From positions 1-64,000 of the forward strand of contig JBBILD010000005.1 in assembly GCA_037445065.1 (NCBI GenBank): a stretch of 64,000 bases of DNA, given 5' to 3'. The translations under genes were made by a program, and so were the position numbers. This document shows, one piece after another, positions 3,523-38,524 of the stretch. The notes beneath the pieces are model-generated. The model was given only the letters and a program-made list of their open reading frames with translations. It ran no database searches and was not told the DNA's origin. Each line of letters opens with the position of its first letter. Position 1 is the stretch's first letter. Source of the DNA: Myxococcales bacterium (GTDB lineage Bacteria > Desulfobacterota > Binatia > HRBIN30).

Positions 3523-4232
3523 TGAACGAGGGCCGTTGTTTCGTCATCGGAGACATCCACGGATGCATCGAGGAGCTGGAAATTCTCCTGAACAGCCTCG
3601 CCCCGGGCTCTGACGATACGGTCGTGTTCCTAGGAGATTACGTCGATCGCGGCCCGGATTCAAAGGCGGTGGTGGATCGGCTGATCCGGTTGCAGGGAGA
3701 GGTCGGGCGTTGCGTCTTCCTCAAAGGCAACCACGAGGACATGTTTCTGGCCTTTGCCGGCCAACCTGGTCATCACGGGCAGGCATTCCTTTACAACGGC
3801 GGCGATGCCACCCTGCGCAGTTACGGTCTCGAGGGGTACGTGGGTCCCGCTCTCTGGGAACGCCTTCCAGACGACCACAAGCTTTTCTTCCTGCGCCTGG
3901 TACTCCACTACCGGAGTGGAGATTTTCTCTGCGTGCATGCGGGGCTCAATCCAGCGCAGCCTCTAGACGGGCAAAGCGAGGAGGATCTCCTCTGGATTCG
4001 CGGTGAGTGGATCCGCGCAAGCCATAACTACGGGTTTACGGTGTTGTTCGGTCACACACCGATGCGCATGCCTTTTGTTCACTGGCCGTACAAGATCGGA
4101 CTGGATACGGGCTTGGTCTACGGGAATGCGTTGACCTGTTTCGAGACTTCCGAGCGCCGGTTCTGGCAAGTACGGCGAGGAGAGACTCAAGTTCGGGAAT
4201 GGATCCCCAACCGGGTGATCCCGATGCCGTGA
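3519..4232 (+). CDS. Ser/Thr protein phosphatase-family metallophosphoesterase
   Basis: GDIHG, GDYVDRG, GNHE, HAG, GHTP, DTG motifs; ATGA overlap with meaB. Confidence 0.9.
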   Translation: MMNEGRCFVIGDIHGCIEELEILLNSLAPGSDDTVVFLGDYVDRGPDSKAVVDRLIRLQGEVGRCVFLKGNHEDMFLAFAGQPGHHGQAFLYNGGDATLRSYGLEGYVGPALWERLPDDHKLFFLRLVLHYRSGDFLCVHAGLNPAQPLDGQSEEDLLWIRGEWIRASHNYGFTVLFGHTPMRMPFVHWPYKIGLDTGLVYGNALTCFETSERRFWQVRRGETQVREWIPNRVIPMP

Positions 4233-31533: not shown

Positions 31534-33285
31534 GTGGATCGGACCACTTCTTCTCCGCCCGTTCCTCCTCTACGTGTCGCGGCCGTCGCCGCCCTTGCGG
31601 CATTTGCCCTGTACACACCGGCACTGCGCAACGGCTTCGTGTGGGACGATCCGATCGTCCTCGAACAGCTTCGCCATTTTCGCCACGCAAAGGATTTCTT
31701 TTTCCAACCCGACGTGGTGCCAAAGTTTTACTACCGCCCCGTCACCTTTCTCTCTTTTGCCTGGGACCAGCTCCTCGGCGGGCACCGCCCCTTTTTCTTT
31801 CATCTCACCAATTTGCTGCTGCACGCGGCAAACAGCTCGCTGGCAGCACTCATTCTACTGCGTCTTCCTGGGCTCACCGCGCCCCTCCCAGCGCTAGCCG
31901 CTTACCTCTTTGCGGTGCACCCAGTACACGTGGAAGCTGTTGCTTGGGTGGCCGGGCGCGCTGATCTGCTCGCCGCGTTGTTCATCCTATTGGCCACTCT
32001 CGTCGCGTTGCGAACCGCCACAACGATTGGTCTTTGCTGCCTCACCCTGCTCTACTTTGCTGCGTTGCTTTGCAAAGAAACGGCGCTCGGTCTGCTCGCG
32101 GTCTTACCCTTTCTCGACCGGACCCTCGGGCGCCCGTGGCAATGGCGACGCGAGATCCTGTTGCTCACTGCCACCGCATTCTACCTTCTTTTGCGAGCAG
32201 CGAACATCGGCAGCGTGCTCGGGGGACACACGCAGGACCTCAGTCTGGACGCAACCCTCCCAGAGCTTGCTCGGGGCCTAGGGCTGTATTTGGCCCATGC
32301 GTTCGTTCCTGGGCTCACGAATCCATATATGCCCGCCGTCCCTAGCTCCCCGGCCGTGGTCGTCGGCGCGATCGCGTGCCTCGCGCTGGGTGGACTGGCT
32401 TGGGTGAGCGCCCCCGCAAACAAGAGACTTTTTGTTTTCTTTGCCGTTTGGTTTTTCTCTTTCCTCGGACCCGTGGCGCTGATCTTCTTTCGGAAGAGCG
32501 CCACAACGCTGGTGGCGGACCGTTACCTCTACCTTCCATCCCTTGCTTCCTGCGCAGGACTGGTCTTGGCAATCACGGCCGTTATCTCTCGGCTTCCCTC
32601 GCGGCCCCGCGCCTCGATTGCGCTGTGGGGCTTGCTTCTCACCGGAAGCGCCCTCGCAACTCTTTGGAAGGTCCCCGTTTGGCAGGATAACCTGTCCTTT
32701 TGGTCCGCAGCTCAGGCGGCCGCTCCGCAGGACCCGATCGCAAACCGGGAACTGGGGCTAGCCGTTTTGGAGCGGGATCAGCCCAGCAAAGCCAAGCCCT
32801 GGCTCGAAAAGGCGTGGAAGCTCAGCCGGACCGGGGAGGAAAAGGCCATGGCTGCCAGTAACCTAGCCTCGCTGTACCGACGGAGCGGGGACTTTGCCGC
32901 TGCCGTTGCTCTCCTCCGGGATGCGATTGGATCAGCTCCACACCCCGCGCTTTTTCATAATCTCGGCATGACGCTGATGAGCGCCGCGGAACAGGCGCAA
33001 CGAGAGGGCCGCACCGCCGAAGTCGCCGCCAACGTGCTCGGTGCGCGTGACGCGTTTCAACGAGCACTCGACTTTTTGTCTTCTCCTCAGGCTTCTGCGT
33101 TCCGGCCGCTGTGGGACCCCGCCAAAACGCACTCCCTTTTGGGCCAAGTGTACTGGTCGCTCGGCCAGCGCGAGCGGGCTCGCGAGCACTTGCGCGCAGC
33201 ACTGCGACTGGCACCCACCGGACCGATCGCCGAGGCCACTCGCCGCTACTGGTCGCAAGCCTTTCCCGGAGAGGCTCTGCCCTGA
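31534..33285 (+). CDS. TMTC-like GT-C membrane glycosyltransferase with C-terminal TPRs
   Basis: NGFVWDD, YYRPV, HPVHVEAVAWVAGRADLL, KET, ADRYLYLPS, WQDNLSFW, then TPR-like helices. Confidence 0.8.
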   Translation: MDRTTSSPPVPPLRVAAVAALAAFALYTPALRNGFVWDDPIVLEQLRHFRHAKDFFFQPDVVPKFYYRPVTFLSFAWDQLLGGHRPFFFHLTNLLLHAANSSLAALILLRLPGLTAPLPALAAYLFAVHPVHVEAVAWVAGRADLLAALFILLATLVALRTATTIGLCCLTLLYFAALLCKETALGLLAVLPFLDRTLGRPWQWRREILLLTATAFYLLLRAANIGSVLGGHTQDLSLDATLPELARGLGLYLAHAFVPGLTNPYMPAVPSSPAVVVGAIACLALGGLAWVSAPANKRLFVFFAVWFFSFLGPVALIFFRKSATTLVADRYLYLPSLASCAGLVLAITAVISRLPSRPRASIALWGLLLTGSALATLWKVPVWQDNLSFWSAAQAAAPQDPIANRELGLAVLERDQPSKAKPWLEKAWKLSRTGEEKAMAASNLASLYRRSGDFAAAVALLRDAIGSAPHPALFHNLGMTLMSAAEQAQREGRTAEVAANVLGARDAFQRALDFLSSPQASAFRPLWDPAKTHSLLGQVYWSLGQRERAREHLRAALRLAPTGPIAEATRRYWSQAFPGEALP

Positions 33286-33314
33286 CACGCCAGCAGCAAG
33301 CGCTACATTTCAGT

Positions 33315-33731
33315 GTGAGACAGGTCTCAGGACCCAGCGAGCTCGCACTTGCGCTCTTCGTTCGCCGCCGTGTCTTCGTTGATGAGCAACGCATCCCCTA
33401 TGGGATCGAATTCGATACCGCAGACTGCGCCGCCCTTCATGCGCTGGCTTTGCGTGGAACGATGCCGATCGGCACAAGCCGCCTCCTCCTCACTGGGAAA
33501 AGTGCTCGAATCGGCCGTCTCGCTGTTCTGCCAACTGCGCGCCAGCTCGGCGTCGGTACGGCGATCCTCCAATTCTTGCTGCAACTCGGCCGGCGACACG
33601 GCGCAACGCACTTCCTCCTGCACGCCCAGCTCCCCACCTTGCCACTGTACTTGAGAGCAGGTTTTCACGTCACGAGCTCGGTCTTCTGGGAGGATGGCCT
33701 GCCTCACTGCCGCCTCGAGCGCACCGATTGA
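33315..33731 (+). CDS. GNAT family N-acetyltransferase (ElaA/YjcF-like)
   Basis: RRRVFVDEQ, IGRLAV, RQLGVG, LHAQ, EDGLPH; start approximate. Confidence 0.85.
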   Translation: MRQVSGPSELALALFVRRRVFVDEQRIPYGIEFDTADCAALHALALRGTMPIGTSRLLLTGKSARIGRLAVLPTARQLGVGTAILQFLLQLGRRHGATHFLLHAQLPTLPLYLRAGFHVTSSVFWEDGLPHCRLERTD

Positions 33732-33765: not shown

Positions 33766-33782
33766 ATGAAAATGAGTTTCAA
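33766..33782 (+). promoter_or_regulatory. Putative Fur box
   Basis: ATGAAAATGAGTTTCAA: AT-rich palindrome upstream of an operon ending in bfd-bfr; TTGACT -35-like hexamer at 33728. Confidence 0.7.
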
Positions 33783-33855
33783 AATCGTAGGTGGCCCGCG
33801 CGGGGCTTTTGCCGGCGGAGAACAACACACCAAACCGTTGCGGAAGGGAGGACGT

Positions 33856-35235
33856 ATGCGACTTGCTTGTTGGGTGGTTGCACTGTTCGTGCTGGTCGGT
33901 GGATGGAGTCCACCTGCAGAGGGCCAATCCGGCTCAGGAAAGGACACCCTCAAGGAACTCCGTGAGGAGCAGGAGAGACTGCGTCGCGAACTGGAACGAC
34001 TCAAGCAGCAACTGGGTACACAGCGGGATGAGCAGAAACGGCTCCAGGAAATCGAGCGCAAGCAGACGATTGTCACGGACGAATTGCGGCGCTTGCGCGA
34101 AGCCTTTGTGCTTCCCGAAACCCGAGAGCTCAAGAGCTACTACGGTCTCGGCCCGGCGGCTTCGAAGGTGTACGGGCTCGAGCGCGGCCTCTCGATTGGT
34201 GGTTACGGAGAAGCGAATTTGCGAAGCGTCGTCGGCAATAAGGGTAGCGACAACGACGTGTTCGACTTTTTGCGCTTGGTTCTGTACGTCGGGTACAAGT
34301 TCAACGATTGGATCGTGTTCAACTCGGAAACGGAGTTCGAACATGCATCCACAGGCGAGAGTGGAGAAGTCTCGGTAGAGTTCGCCAATCTTGACTTCTT
34401 TCTTCATCAGATGGCGAACGTCCGCTTCGGCCTTGTGCTGGTACCGATGGGCTTCATCAACGAAGTGCACGAACCGCCGTTCTTCTTTGGGAACGTGCGC
34501 CCGCCAGTCGAGACGGTACTTTTGCCATCCACATGGCGGGCCAATGGGCTCGGGTTCTTCGGCGAAATCTTCCCCGGCCTCACCTACCGCACCTACGGCA
34601 TTACGAGCCTCGATGCAGCAGGGTTCCGCTCAAGCGGGATTCGAGGCGGCAGGCAGAGTGGCAGCCTAGAGCGGGCGGAGGATTTTTCCTGGGTCGGCCG
34701 CCTCGACTATTCGTTTCTACCCTCCTCATTCGTGGGCGTGTCTGCTTACGTCGGCGATCAAGGGCAAGGCCGTCTCTACGGACCGTCGGGATTACAAGAC
34801 GATGTCGGGGTTTTTACGCAAATCTACGAGGGCCACTTCCAACTTCGTTATCAGGGACTGGAGTTTCGCGCTTTAGGGACGGTAACCCTGCTCGACAACG
34901 CAACTCGCCTGAGCCTCGACCCGAGTATTAACCAACCAATCGGAAACCGGATGCTCGGCTATTACGCGGAGATCGGCTACGACATCTTGCCGCTGATCCT
35001 GCCCGGAACGACGCAATACCTCGCGCCTTGGTTCCGTTACTCGCACACGGACACGCAACAGAGCGTACCCTCGGGCCTAAGCGCGGACAATCGCCAGAAC
35101 CGCGACTACTTCGAAGCGGGATTGCAGTACAAACCCATCCCGCAGGTGGTGGTCAAACTCGACTACCGGAATCTGGACGCCGAGACTGGCACTCTTCCAG
35201 ACGAAATTCGCATCGGCGCTGGATTTGTTTTCTAA
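33856..35235 (+). CDS. Outer-membrane beta-barrel/porin with N-terminal coiled coil
   Basis: GGGAGG RBS; signal peptide; heptad-rich segment; GGYGE, FNSETEFEH, NEVHEP; terminal GAGFVF. Confidence 0.82.
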   Translation: MRLACWVVALFVLVGGWSPPAEGQSGSGKDTLKELREEQERLRRELERLKQQLGTQRDEQKRLQEIERKQTIVTDELRRLREAFVLPETRELKSYYGLGPAASKVYGLERGLSIGGYGEANLRSVVGNKGSDNDVFDFLRLVLYVGYKFNDWIVFNSETEFEHASTGESGEVSVEFANLDFFLHQMANVRFGLVLVPMGFINEVHEPPFFFGNVRPPVETVLLPSTWRANGLGFFGEIFPGLTYRTYGITSLDAAGFRSSGIRGGRQSGSLERAEDFSWVGRLDYSFLPSSFVGVSAYVGDQGQGRLYGPSGLQDDVGVFTQIYEGHFQLRYQGLEFRALGTVTLLDNATRLSLDPSINQPIGNRMLGYYAEIGYDILPLILPGTTQYLAPWFRYSHTDTQQSVPSGLSADNRQNRDYFEAGLQYKPIPQVVVKLDYRNLDAETGTLPDEIRIGAGFVF

Positions 35236-35238
35236 GTC

Positions 35239-35799
35239 ATGGAGCCTTTCCGCCGATCGCGGCTGCTCGAGGTGGTTCTGTTGGGGAGCTGGCTTACCGC
35301 CAGCTCCCCATTCCTGGTTTCGGCCGGTGTGCTGCACTCGCGTGATGAAGCACTCGCCATCGCCTTCCCAGACGCGGAGGAGATTCGGCCTCTCGACTTT
35401 TACTTGACGCCGGAGCAAAAGTCCGAAATCGAGCGCATTGCGGCAGCTAGCGTCGAATCGAATCTCATCACGGTGTACGCTGGACAGCGTAACGGTGCGC
35501 CCGCTGGCTACGCCTTTTTCGATACACACATCGTGCGTACACTGCCAGAAACGTTGCTCATTGTGCTTTCCCCGCGCGGAGAGGTAACGGGCGTTCATTT
35601 GCTCGCCTTCTACGAACCTCCCGAGTACGCACCACCGCAAGCTTGGTTCGAAAAATTCCGAGGTTGGAGCATGCCGGAGTCGGGCAATGCTCCACCAGAG
35701 GTAGCAGCGATCGCTGGTTCGACATTGTCGTCGCGAGCAGCCAATGCAGCGGTGCGCCGCGCCTTGGCAGTCTACCAAGTGCTGCTACGGCGGAGGTGA
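35239..35799 (+). CDS. Exported FMN-binding domain protein
   Basis: Signal-like N-terminus; C-terminal AIAGSTLSS resembling the [S/T]GA[S/T] flavinylation motif. Confidence 0.72.
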   Translation: MEPFRRSRLLEVVLLGSWLTASSPFLVSAGVLHSRDEALAIAFPDAEEIRPLDFYLTPEQKSEIERIAAASVESNLITVYAGQRNGAPAGYAFFDTHIVRTLPETLLIVLSPRGEVTGVHLLAFYEPPEYAPPQAWFEKFRGWSMPESGNAPPEVAAIAGSTLSSRAANAAVRRALAVYQVLLRRR

Positions 35800-35802
35800 G
35801 CG

Positions 35803-36327
35803 GTGCGCTTCGTGATCTCCGGGGAATGGACGCGCAACCGACTACTACGGGTCATCGTGTGGTGCTTCCTCGCTTACACCTTCGTGCTCTGGCTCACGAA
35901 CTTCGGATTGTACTTCAGTAAAATGGGCCTCAGCCCCAGCTCCGTTGCAAGCTATTACCGTGGCAACCAAGAACTGTTCCTGCAACCGAGATCGCTCCTC
36001 GGCCTCCTAGAGCAGCTTCACTTTCACAGTTTCGCCATGGGGATCTTGCTGCTCACCCTGACCCACCTCTTGCTTTTCGTTCCCATCTCGCTGTCCACAA
36101 AGGCCTGGGGCATTGCCGTCAGCTTCGCTTCGGCGCTTCTTGGAGAGGTTTCCGGCTGGGCCATCCGCTTCGTTCATCCTTCATTCGCTTATCTCAAAGT
36201 AGCTTCGTTCCTAGCACTACAGGGAACCTTGCTGTGGCTCATGGTGTGCGTGGCACGAGCGCTGTTCAGCCGCGCCCCGAGCGCGTATCCCGGTCGTGGG
36301 GCACCGCCGACATGGCCTGTCGAGTGA
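35803..36327 (+). CDS. Hypothetical ~4-TM membrane protein with clustered His residues
   Basis: Hydrophobic helices; YYRG; HFHSFAMGILLLTLTH. Confidence 0.75.
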   Translation: MRFVISGEWTRNRLLRVIVWCFLAYTFVLWLTNFGLYFSKMGLSPSSVASYYRGNQELFLQPRSLLGLLEQLHFHSFAMGILLLTLTHLLLFVPISLSTKAWGIAVSFASALLGEVSGWAIRFVHPSFAYLKVASFLALQGTLLWLMVCVARALFSRAPSAYPGRGAPPTWPVE

Positions 36328-37286
36328 TCCTCATGTTCGCCGCGGTATGTTTGTGTGCGCCGCACCTCGGTCAAGCGGCGAGCGCGCGCACAGGAGGTTT
36401 GGTGATGGGCACCATCCTCGACGTCGAAATCGAAGCTGCGACGCTGTCCGAGGCCCGTGACCTCGGTGCCCTCGCCCTTACCGTGGCCCGCCACTGGGAT
36501 GATGTGTTGAGCACCTGGAAAGCAGAGGCAGAGCTCGAACGGCTAAACCGACATGCGGGGACTTGGGTGCAACTCAGCTCTGACCTAGCGTGGGCAATCG
36601 AGCAAATGCGCGCCCTCTCGATCCAGACCCAAAATGCCTTCAATCCGTGCGTGGGGAGGTTTGTGCTTGGGCCAGCGTCGCATCCCACGCCGCCGCTCAT
36701 CCCCGAGTTGGGGAACGCCCTGGGCCTCCTGCAAGGAGCCGCGCGCGTGTCTGAGGATTGTCGCCTCGACGCTGGGGGAATCGGCAAAGGCATCGCACTG
36801 GATGCCATCGCTTCGGTTCTTTTGGCTCGCGGGGCACGGACCATCTTCCTCAACTTTGGGGGTTCGAGCCAAACGTTCGTATCGCGCAGCCCTGGGGCGC
36901 GCGTGGCGGTGGCACTGCCCCGCCTCAGCTCGAACGGATCCGCGGGAATCCTGTGGCTTCGCCAAGGGGCCGTTGGGACTTCACGTACCCCCGCCGAAGC
37001 GAGTTCCGGTGAGATTATAGACCCGCGTTCGGGCCAACCCGTCCAAGAAGCCCGCATGGCGACGGTCTGTGCCGCCAGCGCAGCAGAAGCAGACGCTTGG
37101 TCAACGGCAATCGTCGTTCTTGGGGACCAGGGCGTAGAGCTCGCGCAACGCGCCGGAATTTATGCCGTATTTCAGGACATGAGCACGTGGCGGGTTGGTG
37201 CACCTTTTTCTGACCGCGCCGCGACGGATCAAGCCGCTCCTCTTTTTGAGTGCGAATTCCAAGGATTCACAGGGGACCCCTCATGA
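36324..37286 (+). CDS. apbE: FAD:protein FMN transferase (divergent)
   Basis: MGT, LDAGGIGKGIALD, NFGG, IIDPRSG, ADAWSTA; GTGA overlap with the upstream gene. Confidence 0.85.
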   Translation: MILMFAAVCLCAPHLGQAASARTGGLVMGTILDVEIEAATLSEARDLGALALTVARHWDDVLSTWKAEAELERLNRHAGTWVQLSSDLAWAIEQMRALSIQTQNAFNPCVGRFVLGPASHPTPPLIPELGNALGLLQGAARVSEDCRLDAGGIGKGIALDAIASVLLARGARTIFLNFGGSSQTFVSRSPGARVAVALPRLSSNGSAGILWLRQGAVGTSRTPAEASSGEIIDPRSGQPVQEARMATVCAASAAEADAWSTAIVVLGDQGVELAQRAGIYAVFQDMSTWRVGAPFSDRAATDQAAPLFECEFQGFTGDPS

Positions 37287-37525
37287 TCGTCTGCTTTTGC
37301 CACCGCCTTACCGAGGCGGACGTTGCGCGCTTCCGCTCGCTGGGTATCCGCGACTGGAAGAGCTTGGCTCGCCTCACCAAAGCGGGGAGCCGGTGCCGGC
37401 CCTGCCGCAGGGAGCTTGTCCGACTTCTCTCCCCCCAAAACAGCATCTCAAGCGGGGAGCAGCAGCTTGACTGCCTTCTCGAGAACCTGCAGAAGGATCA
37501 CCAAGTGGAGGCGGCGAAACCGTGA
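37283..37525 (+). CDS. bfd: Bacterioferritin-associated [2Fe-2S] ferredoxin
   Basis: MIVCFC...GSRCRPC; ATGA overlap with apbE; adjacent to bfr. Confidence 0.85.
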
Positions 37526-37992
37526 AAGGGAATCCGAAGCTCATCGAGCTGCTCAATGAGGTACTCACCGGCGAACTGACCAGCATCAATCAGTACTTTG
37601 TGCATGCGAAAATGTGCGAGAACTGGGGCTACCACCGCTTGTACGAGAGGATCCGGAAAGAATCGATTGACGAAATGAGACACGCTGATGAACTCATCGA
37701 GCGGATTCTCTTCCTCGACGGTGTACCGAACGTGCAAAGGCTGGGGAAAGTGCGCGTGGGAGAGACCGTACCCGAGCAGCTCAAGCTCGATCTCGCACTC
37801 GAGAAAGAAGCAGTGACTCGCCTAAACCAAGCGATTGCCTTGGCAGTGGAAGTAGGCGACAACGGCACGAGACACCTGCTCGAGTCACTGCTGAAAAGCG
37901 AGGAAGAACACATCGAGTGGCTTGAAGCGCAGCTCACGCTTCTCGAACAAGTTGGAGAGAAAAATTACTTGGCGCAGCAAATCCGTGATTAA
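37522..37992 (+). CDS. bfr: Bacterioferritin
   Basis: [41 protein letters not shown]. Confidence 0.97.
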
Positions 37993-38002
37993 CACTGGCG
38001 GT

Positions 38003-38524
38003 ATGCCGGTATTCACCTGCACGGTACCCTGTCCAGCTGGAGCCCTAATCGTTTCGGCCACACCCGTTTCGATCATCGCCGTCCACTGGTGCTCAGAGGA
38101 AGTGGGAGAATCGCCAGTTTCGCACTCCTCATGCGAGGGAGCGTCCAGCCCGAATCCCGTCCTTCTGCAGCGGGCCAGTGAAGAACTTCGTGAGTACCTC
38201 GCTTCTGCGCGCACCCGGTTCACGGTTCCCTGGTCCGTAAGCGGCACTCCGTTTCAGACGAAGGTATGGGAGGCCCTGTCCCGTGTGCCCTATGGGGCTA
38301 CGTGGAGTTACCGTGAACTGGCACAGGCCGTCGGCGCACCACGAGCGGTGCGGGCAGTGGCCAACGCAGTCGCTGCCAATCCCATCGCCATTATCCTTCC
38401 CTGCCATCGAATCGTGTGTTCGGACGGCACCTTGGGCGGCTACGCTGGGGGTGTGGCTCGCAAGCAATGGCTCTTGGACATGGAACGAAACCGACCCGTT
38501 CAGACGGCGAGTTCTTCCTCTTGA
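38003..38524 (+). CDS. ogt: Methylated-DNA-protein-cysteine methyltransferase
   Basis: GTPFQ, VPYG, SYRELA, RAVA, PCHRI. Confidence 0.93.
   Translation: MPVFTCTVPCPAGALIVSATPVSIIAVHWCSEEVGESPVSHSSCEGASSPNPVLLQRASEELREYLASARTRFTVPWSVSGTPFQTKVWEALSRVPYGATWSYRELAQAVGAPRAVRAVANAVAANPIAIILPCHRIVCSDGTLGGYAGGVARKQWLLDMERNRPVQTASSSS

Follow-up and report, generated by a model that had tools for sequence, protein, structure and literature searches.

ApbE-flavinylated proteins are now recognised as general extracytoplasmic electron carriers, and iron assimilation is the task of several known systems. In the main text of Meheust et al. (2021, eLife, PMC8238504), the ApbE-flavinylated extracytosolic electron-transfer systems tied to iron assimilation comprise MsrQ-like, PepSY-like/FoxB, DsbD/DUF3570, NQR/RNF-like and P19–FTR1-associated FMN_bind types. 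Here we analysed the first 64,000 nucleotides (nt) of contig JBBILD010000005.1 (forward strand; hereafter the window), from the 3.79 Mb, 97.7% complete genome of a Myxococcales bacterium (assembly GCA_037445065.1; GTDB lineage Bacteria; Desulfobacterota; Binatia; HRBIN30). Six co-oriented genes at 33856–37992 encode a porin, an exported FMN_bind flavoprotein, a four-helix inner-membrane protein (4TM), the flavin transferase ApbE, a bacterioferritin-associated ferredoxin (Bfd) and bacterioferritin (Bfr). We propose, with a probability of about 0.55, that they form a Fur-repressed operon for a periplasmic reductive iron-acquisition module, to which bfd and bfr have been appended in this family. 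The module is most likely a variant, so far undescribed, of the reductive iron-assimilation systems that are linked to flavinylation.

As in the systems presented in the main text of PMC8238504, ApbE and a secreted flavinylation substrate stand in one cluster with a small membrane partner; probable Fur regulation, the linkage of ferrous-iron transporters to part of the clusters and a proposed assimilatory reduction of iron are further likenesses. By contrast, the 4TM protein belongs to none of the membrane families treated in that text, and the core of the module includes a dedicated porin, a component that those systems do not have; the words 'porin' and 'bacterioferritin' are both absent from the main text. 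A literature search found no paper that describes this composition, in agreement with the initial annotation, which knew of no characterised counterpart, and none on the 4TM family under PF27139 or aq_1264; the supplementary tables of PMC8238504 may list such clusters unnamed. The locus comprises the following features.

33768–33786, no strand assigned: Fur-box-like palindrome GAAAATGAGTTTCAAAATC, within the 124 nt that separate a GNAT acetyltransferase gene from the porin gene, 70–88 nt before the porin ATG
33856–35235, forward strand: outer-membrane porin of 459 amino acids (aa), with signal peptide, N-terminal helix (31–84) and predicted 16-strand beta-barrel; TAA stop
35239–35799, forward strand: exported RnfG/NqrC-like FMN_bind protein, 186 aa, with the predicted flavinylation motif IAGSTLS (G160, T162); ATG start, 3 nt after the porin TAA
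35803–36327, forward strand: inner-membrane four-helix protein, 174 aa, PF27139 (Aq_1264_TM), with conserved Y52, G54, E70, H73, H75 and H88; GTG start after a 3-nt gap
36311–37286, forward strand: ApbE flavin transferase, with N-terminal signal sequence and PF02424 match; start at ATG 36311 or GTG 36324, overlapping the 4TM stop
37283–37525, forward strand: Bfd, bacterioferritin-associated [2Fe-2S] ferredoxin, 80 aa, with Cys4, Cys6, Cys38 and Cys41; ATG start, ATGA overlap with the ApbE stop
37522–37992, forward strand: bacterioferritin, 156 aa; heme-ligand Met52 and, at the ferroxidase centre, E18, E51 and H54 (E. coli Bfr numbering); GTG start, GTGA overlap with the Bfd stop

The open reading frames and their junctions were read in the sequence itself, and the spacing given in the initial annotation was recovered: 3 nt, 3 nt and then three start/stop overlaps, as expected of the single, tightly coupled operon that it had proposed. 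Starting ApbE at GTG 36324 reproduces the 4-nt GTGA overlap with the 4TM gene; with ATG 36311 as the start, the overlap is 17 nt and the n-region (MACRV...) is more typical of a signal peptide, and the ATG may be the true start. We infer that the six genes are co-transcribed. The product families also proved to be as named, with scores above the cut-offs for FMN_bind (PF04205, 28.9 bits versus 22), ApbE (PF02424, 128.1 bits versus 25.6, covering profile positions 1–266), Fer2_BFD (PF04324, 31.1 bits versus 26, with the four Cys visible in the translation) and bacterioferritin (TIGR00754, 211.6 bits versus 125.55, with the Ferritin family also matched); the first product is a porin by its structural model.

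A profile built from 28 homologues of the FMN_bind protein matched the solved RnfG structure 9eri_G at E 1e-12; across these 28 sequences G160 never varies and T162 is conserved in at least 90%, and a G-[AS]-[TS] motif occurs in 29/29 of the homologues displayed. The profile match and the G-[AS]-T motif liken the protein to RnfG/NqrC. Rnf and Nqr, however, are multi-subunit pumps, and the protein of the window instead carries a cleavable-looking signal peptide. The genome contains one ApbE match and one FMN_bind match, both within this operon, so the ApbE is predicted to serve this flavoprotein alone by transferring flavin mononucleotide to its Thr. With no further FMN_bind match, no second RnfG/NqrC-type protein was detected in the genome, in a search that did not extend to other Rnf/Nqr subunits.

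Next, the distribution of the module was surveyed through its 4TM component. The 4TM family was present in 71/121 genomes of the class and in 12/201 genomes of a phylum sample; 406 clusters matched at E ≤0.001 among the 1.84 billion representatives searched, the named homologues being Candidatus Binatia metagenome-assembled genomes (MAGs). A motif-seeded scan of species genomes (about 760 stretches estimated) yielded 80 loci, which belong to Binatia, Myxococcota, Methylococcales, Spirochaetales, Entotheonella, Cloacimonadota and further groups. Because the scan was seeded with a narrower 4TM alignment (A3), this set is biased towards carriers of E-x-[TSA]-H-F-H; at least five of its loci duplicate others in the survey, and contig ends truncate several. 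In 20 class loci, FMN_bind–4TM–ApbE was found in 20/20, and all four genes were contiguous in 17/20. In 11 phylum loci, the trio of outer-membrane protein (OMP), FMN_bind and 4TM was adjacent in 10/11, with ApbE adjoining in 7 of those 10. The 80 species loci contained FMN_bind in 78, OMP in 71, ApbE in 64, a Fur-family gene in 27, FTR1 in 3, Bfr in 2, FeoB in 2 and P19 in 1. The gene arrangement is not due to chance, since it is conserved in relatives, and porin–FMN_bind–4TM(–ApbE) is, judging from gene order, a conserved module. The initial annotation had treated all six genes as one system. This did not hold: the conserved unit is the porin–FMN_bind–4TM(–ApbE) set, and bfd–bfr accompany it only within the same family. 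The neighbourhood survey thus bore out the wide co-occurrence of the quartet, and Fur-like sites in relatives, but limited the linkage to bfd–bfr.

The genes that flank the module in other lineages (FeoB, FTR1, P19, imelysin and DtxR) make the role in iron acquisition proposed in the initial annotation likely. In two small genomes, Fur–FeoB–DtxR/FeoA stands directly upstream of the module, in the order ...–ApbE–OMP–FMN_bind–4TM, and in another genome FTR1 directly follows the 4TM gene (OMP–FMN_bind–ApbE–4TM–FTR1). P19 and FTR1 lie beside the module in two genomes, FeoB in two, and imelysin with DUF1513 in two; P19 and FTR1 flank it at loci L020, L023 and L145. In the genome of the window itself, FeoB is encoded on another contig (157.7 bits); the earlier statement that Feo genes are lacking is correct for the cluster and not for the genome. 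FTR1, the mark of a P19–FTR1 iron system, was not found in the genome at its 97.7% completeness, nor was DUF4405.

Individual loci showed further arrangements around the module. In a 1.9 Mb genome (G048), two near-identical Fur–FeoB–DtxR/FeoA–ApbE–porin–FMN_bind–tandem-4TM loci both lie at contig ends (L024 on contig C24 and L025 on contig C4), and the pair may be an assembly duplicate. In two Entotheonella MAGs, imelysin (Peptidase_M75) and DUF1513 genes are directly downstream on the opposite strand (L089, 8607–10958; L091, 8590–10974). In two Methylococcales MAGs, a gene for a CCP_MauG di-heme cytochrome c peroxidase stands between the porin and FMN_bind genes (L127, 5425–6750; L153, 5982–7340); no ApbE gene turned up in the flanking sequence retrieved for either locus, and a cytochrome P460 gene lies close by in L127, as it does in L133, a related locus. 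One class genome has a second, weak ApbE-like match (29% identity) divergently oriented upstream of the porin gene (L018, 10763–11584, forward strand).

Upstream of the porin gene, the palindrome at 33768–33786 matches 14/19 positions of the Fur consensus, and is a predicted operator. It is the only site in the window with at least 13/19 matches and one of 7 in the genome with at least 14. Of the 95 related loci whose upstream region could be used, 54 have an upstream Fur-box-like site with at least 14/19 matches, and in 58/95 the 320-nt upstream stretch holds the best Fur-like site of the whole 4–17 kb locus. A Fur-family gene adjoins the module in 27/80 species loci and 6/20 class loci; the genome of the window has two Fur-family genes, on contigs C15 and C22. 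Because an operator-like palindrome is found here and in most relatives, together with adjacent Fur-family genes, Fur-type control of the operon is likely, as had been claimed, through an operator that is so far predicted. The palindrome pattern GAWWWTGANNNTCAWWWTC occurs just twice in the genome. The second copy (G000, C3:155567; locus L181, about 4050–4090) has the same extended flanks, TGAAAATGA..TCAAAATCGT, and is followed by a small Cys-rich open reading frame and by two genes of 391 and 342 aa without a Pfam family. These genes may be further members of the same regulon; as its neighbours belong to no Pfam family, this copy does not help to define that regulon.

The AlphaFold model of the porin (pLDDT 79.7) shows a signal peptide, a long coiled-coil-like N-terminal helix and 16 strands, and in a Foldseek search of the PDB it matched OmpT, OmpU, OmpF, OprP and DcaP at E 5e-12 to 1e-9. 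The protein thus resembles general trimeric porins and DcaP/OprP-type channels in having a 16-strand barrel, and DcaP presumably also has a long N-terminal helix before its barrel. Unlike the fold, the sequence gave no family-level match to any of these: a PDB sequence search found nothing, the Pfam OMP_b-brl score was below threshold (25.4 versus 28.7), and among 25 members of the porin family there were weak Pfam matches to OMP_b-brl in 9/25 and to Porin_O_P in 5/25. Phosphate-selective porin O/P (PF07396) did not match the porin of the window (the best E among the 5 weakly matching relatives was 3.3e-6), and the Foldseek likeness to OprP/OprO is at the level of 16-strand porins generally. 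Where OprP has an arginine ladder, the constriction region here is rich in Glu and His. Both motifs singled out in the initial annotation, ETEFEH (157–163) and NEVHEP (202–207), are present and belong to the most conserved positions across 25 homologues: E158, E160, E162, E175, N202 and H205 are invariant, and H163, E203, E206 and P207 at least 90% conserved. NEVHEP lies in a long loop between strands 5 and 6, which is probably the constriction loop. A dedicated, Glu/His-lined porin is suggestive of a way for iron to cross the outer membrane without TonB.

The 4TM protein is the component with no known function, fold relative or published study. Precomputed Pfam annotation places PF27139 (Aq_1264_TM), a domain without a described function, on each of the 120 homologues listed, among them P0001 (99% identical), and Atlas clusters named Aq_1264_TM score 0.97; in a library scan that did not contain the PF27139 model, no Pfam family matched at E ≤0.01. 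Its structural model (pLDDT 93.3) is a bundle of four long helices with a short helix in the first loop. Foldseek against the PDB returned nothing at E ≤0.001 and a PDB sequence-profile search no match, and a VIA wide fold search found generic four-helix bundles only (Z ≤9); a remote likeness of fold may exist. In the Pfam scan at E ≤0.01 the protein matched none of the known flavinylation-associated membrane electron carriers (MsrQ-like PF01794, PepSY-like PF03929/PF16357, DsbD PF02683, NqrB/RnfD and DUF4405 PF14358).

Natural variants give further clues to the architecture of the 4TM protein. In 17 tandem-duplicated members (P0131, P0148, P0149, P0151, P0165 and 12 more; about 305–340 aa, with P0167 at 600 aa), the residues conserved in the alignment of homologues are divided between the halves, E70 and H73 in the N-terminal half and Y52, G54, H75 and H88 in the C-terminal half. 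This split argues for one asymmetric site across a dimer interface and is compatible with a single heme or a metal/ligand site. H75 and H88 share helix 2 at a distance of 13 residues, a spacing on one helix that is typical of heme ligands. Four proteins are natural 4TM–ApbE fusions (P0124, P0126, P0127 and P0167), joined through a basic linker and the hydrophobic anchor of ApbE; single members are fused C-terminally to a DtxR-type regulator with an FeoA domain (P0171) and to PilZ (P0137), and the lone DtxR fusion could be a gene-calling artefact. As these C-terminal partners are PilZ, a DtxR/FeoA-type domain and ApbE, they point to an N-in/C-in topology, in which helix 2 would carry E70, H73 and H75 close to its periplasmic end and H88 close to its cytoplasmic end.

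Complex modelling, proposed in the initial annotation, docked the mature flavoprotein on a 4TM dimer and offers weak support for the pairing. Two 4TM copies with the flavoprotein reached an ipSAE of 0.45 versus 0.00 for the best control, a value reached by 116/157 solved complexes and 2/215 mismatches in the benchmark, of which the range up to 0.60 holds only 18 of the 157 solved complexes plus both mismatches. The runs had at least 82% of contacts in common, with a partner pLDDT of at least 80.

The nearest parallel among flavinylation-associated membrane proteins is DUF4405/FezC, described by Huang et al. (2024, bioRxiv 10.1101/2024.03.13.584918) as flavinylation- and ferrosome-associated membrane cytochromes b; for FezC, heme sites formed by homodimerisation are proposed. 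Like the 4TM protein, DUF4405/FezC as described there is a small membrane protein beside flavinylated proteins with conserved helix His, and the tandem 4TM forms suggest a dimer; it has six helices, however, whereas the 4TM protein has four and the tandem forms keep the His asymmetrically. A relationship was rejected: hhalign of the 4TM alignment A1 with one DUF4405 protein gave a probability of 0.4%. Most DUF4405 hidden Markov model matches in the class looked cytochrome b-type.

The bfd and bfr genes follow ApbE in 4/4 sampled genomes of the same family, which span two other genera; Bfr is 70–89% identical across these loci, and the ApbE–bfd junctions are tight or overlapping as in the window. 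Within about 7 kb of the module, bfd and bfr were found in 0/16 class loci outside the family and 0/11 phylum loci, and bfr is near the module in 2/80 species loci, once on the opposite strand. As bfd–bfr are attached in one family only, the wiring to bacterioferritin suggested in the initial annotation is not a general property of the module, and the six-gene arrangement is an extension, at the level of the family, of a four-gene module that is much older. In adjacency and defining residues the two genes resemble the Bfd–Bfr iron-mobilisation pair of Pseudomonas aeruginosa and E. coli; unlike that pair, they are joined by translational coupling to an envelope module that follows a single Fur-box-like site, in this family only. 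Through the attachment, iron uptake and storage would stand under one operator in one lineage, a natural case for studying their balance.

Together, these observations can be assembled into the following mechanism. When iron is scarce, Fur would leave the palindrome at 33768–33786 and the operon would be transcribed. Iron species would cross the outer membrane through the 16-strand porin, a trimeric-type barrel whose predicted constriction carries conserved Glu and His. The Sec-exported RnfG-like protein would be flavinylated on Thr162 by the operon's ApbE and would act as a periplasmic one-electron carrier or ferric reductase, and the four-helix Aq_1264_TM protein, probably a dimer, would be its membrane partner, most likely feeding electrons from the membrane or cytoplasm. 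Fe2+ would then enter through a separate importer (here FeoB, whose gene is on another contig; in other lineages FTR1/P19 or FeoB, encoded next to the module), and Bfd and Bfr would buffer or mobilise the incoming iron. In this scheme we infer the substrate, the direction of electron flow and any cofactor of the 4TM protein.

Several observations weigh against this proposal. In 37/95 loci the best Fur-like site is outside the upstream stretch; part of these misses arise because gene starts were only roughly estimated, so that some sites lie just beyond the stretch. The Fur family also senses Zn, Mn, Ni and peroxide, and therefore the regulator next to the module may respond to something other than iron. 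The 4TM protein offers no demonstrable redox cofactor site, is without a fold or sequence relative among solved structures and showed no relation to DUF4405 in the comparison with one such protein; a symmetric two-heme (bis-His) homodimer, an idea drawn from the spacing of H75 and H88, is weakened by the asymmetric tandem halves; and the score for docking of the flavoprotein on the 4TM dimer is weak. Co-expression of an iron store (bfr) with an uptake system under iron limitation is unusual. A simple promoter scan, itself uninformative, found 0 promoter-like sites.

One alternative takes the quartet and bfd–bfr as two functionally independent units that came to share a transcript in this family by neutral rearrangement, the link to bacterioferritin having no mechanistic meaning. 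The absence of bfd/bfr from the non-family class loci and the phylum loci, and the rarity of bfr near the module in the species loci, speak for it, and we regard it as a real, if not the favoured, possibility; yet the link is retained in all four family genomes across two other genera, the ApbE–bfd junctions are tight or overlapping in the window and in the relatives, and both units concern iron. It is also compatible with the mechanism above, which already treats bfd–bfr as a lineage-specific addition. Rather doubtful, in our view, is that the module serves iron uptake with the 4TM protein as an inner-membrane permease or gate for Fe2+ or another metal and not as an electron conduit, with the electron donor of the flavoprotein encoded elsewhere. 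The single asymmetric Glu/His site of the 17 tandem members is of the kind found in pseudo-symmetric transporters, the core module has no other inner-membrane transporter, the fusions to DtxR_C/FeoA (P0171) and PilZ (P0137) resemble the cytoplasmic regulatory domains of transporters, and the protein shows no similarity to known membrane cytochromes. However, FTR1 or FeoB beside the module in several lineages, and FeoB in this genome, mean that an importer is already available, and the 13-residue spacing of H75 and H88 resembles that of heme ligands. Moreover, every characterised FMN_bind system in the main text of PMC8238504 has a membrane electron donor in the same cluster, for which the 4TM protein is the sole candidate here.

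Improbable, by our estimate, is a reading of the module as a Fur-family-regulated periplasmic redox system with a task other than iron uptake, such as the handling of peroxide or oxidative stress or of another metal (Mn, Cu), beside which the iron genes would be coincidental regulon neighbours. The substrate of the module is a prediction, PerR, Zur, Mur and Nur also belong to the Fur family, and the CCP_MauG gene lies between the porin and FMN_bind genes in the two Methylococcales loci; but CCP_MauG-type proteins occur in iron-regulated imelysin clusters too, the operator resembles the iron-Fur consensus at 14–17/19 positions, and the neighbours over the lineages are the iron genes FeoB, FTR1, P19, imelysin, DtxR/FeoA and bfd–bfr. 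The most speculative extension of the proposed iron-acquisition mechanism, to which we give very little credence, would make the Aq_1264_TM dimer a new minimal transmembrane redox or metal relay, in which a periplasm-side Glu70/His73/His75 site and a cytoplasm-side His88 couple the flavoprotein to the cytoplasm, with Bfd as partner in this family; the result would be a three-compartment iron redox conduit with electrons or iron passing directly between bacterioferritin and the flavoprotein with the porin.

The module is present in over half of the sampled class genomes and in Myxococcota, Methylococcales, Spirochaetales and other groups; as it is so common, a biochemical answer would annotate hundreds of genomes. 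At the edges of the operon, a terminator scan gave one terminator-like site, inside the porin gene, a count below the shuffle mean and thus uninformative. An O6-methylguanine-DNA methyltransferase gene (38003–38524, forward strand) starts about 10 nt past the bfr stop and may be co-transcribed with the operon; it was not found adjoining the module in relatives. The GNAT acetyltransferase gene upstream of the operator-like site (33111–33731, forward strand) is kept in 3/4 genomes of the same family.

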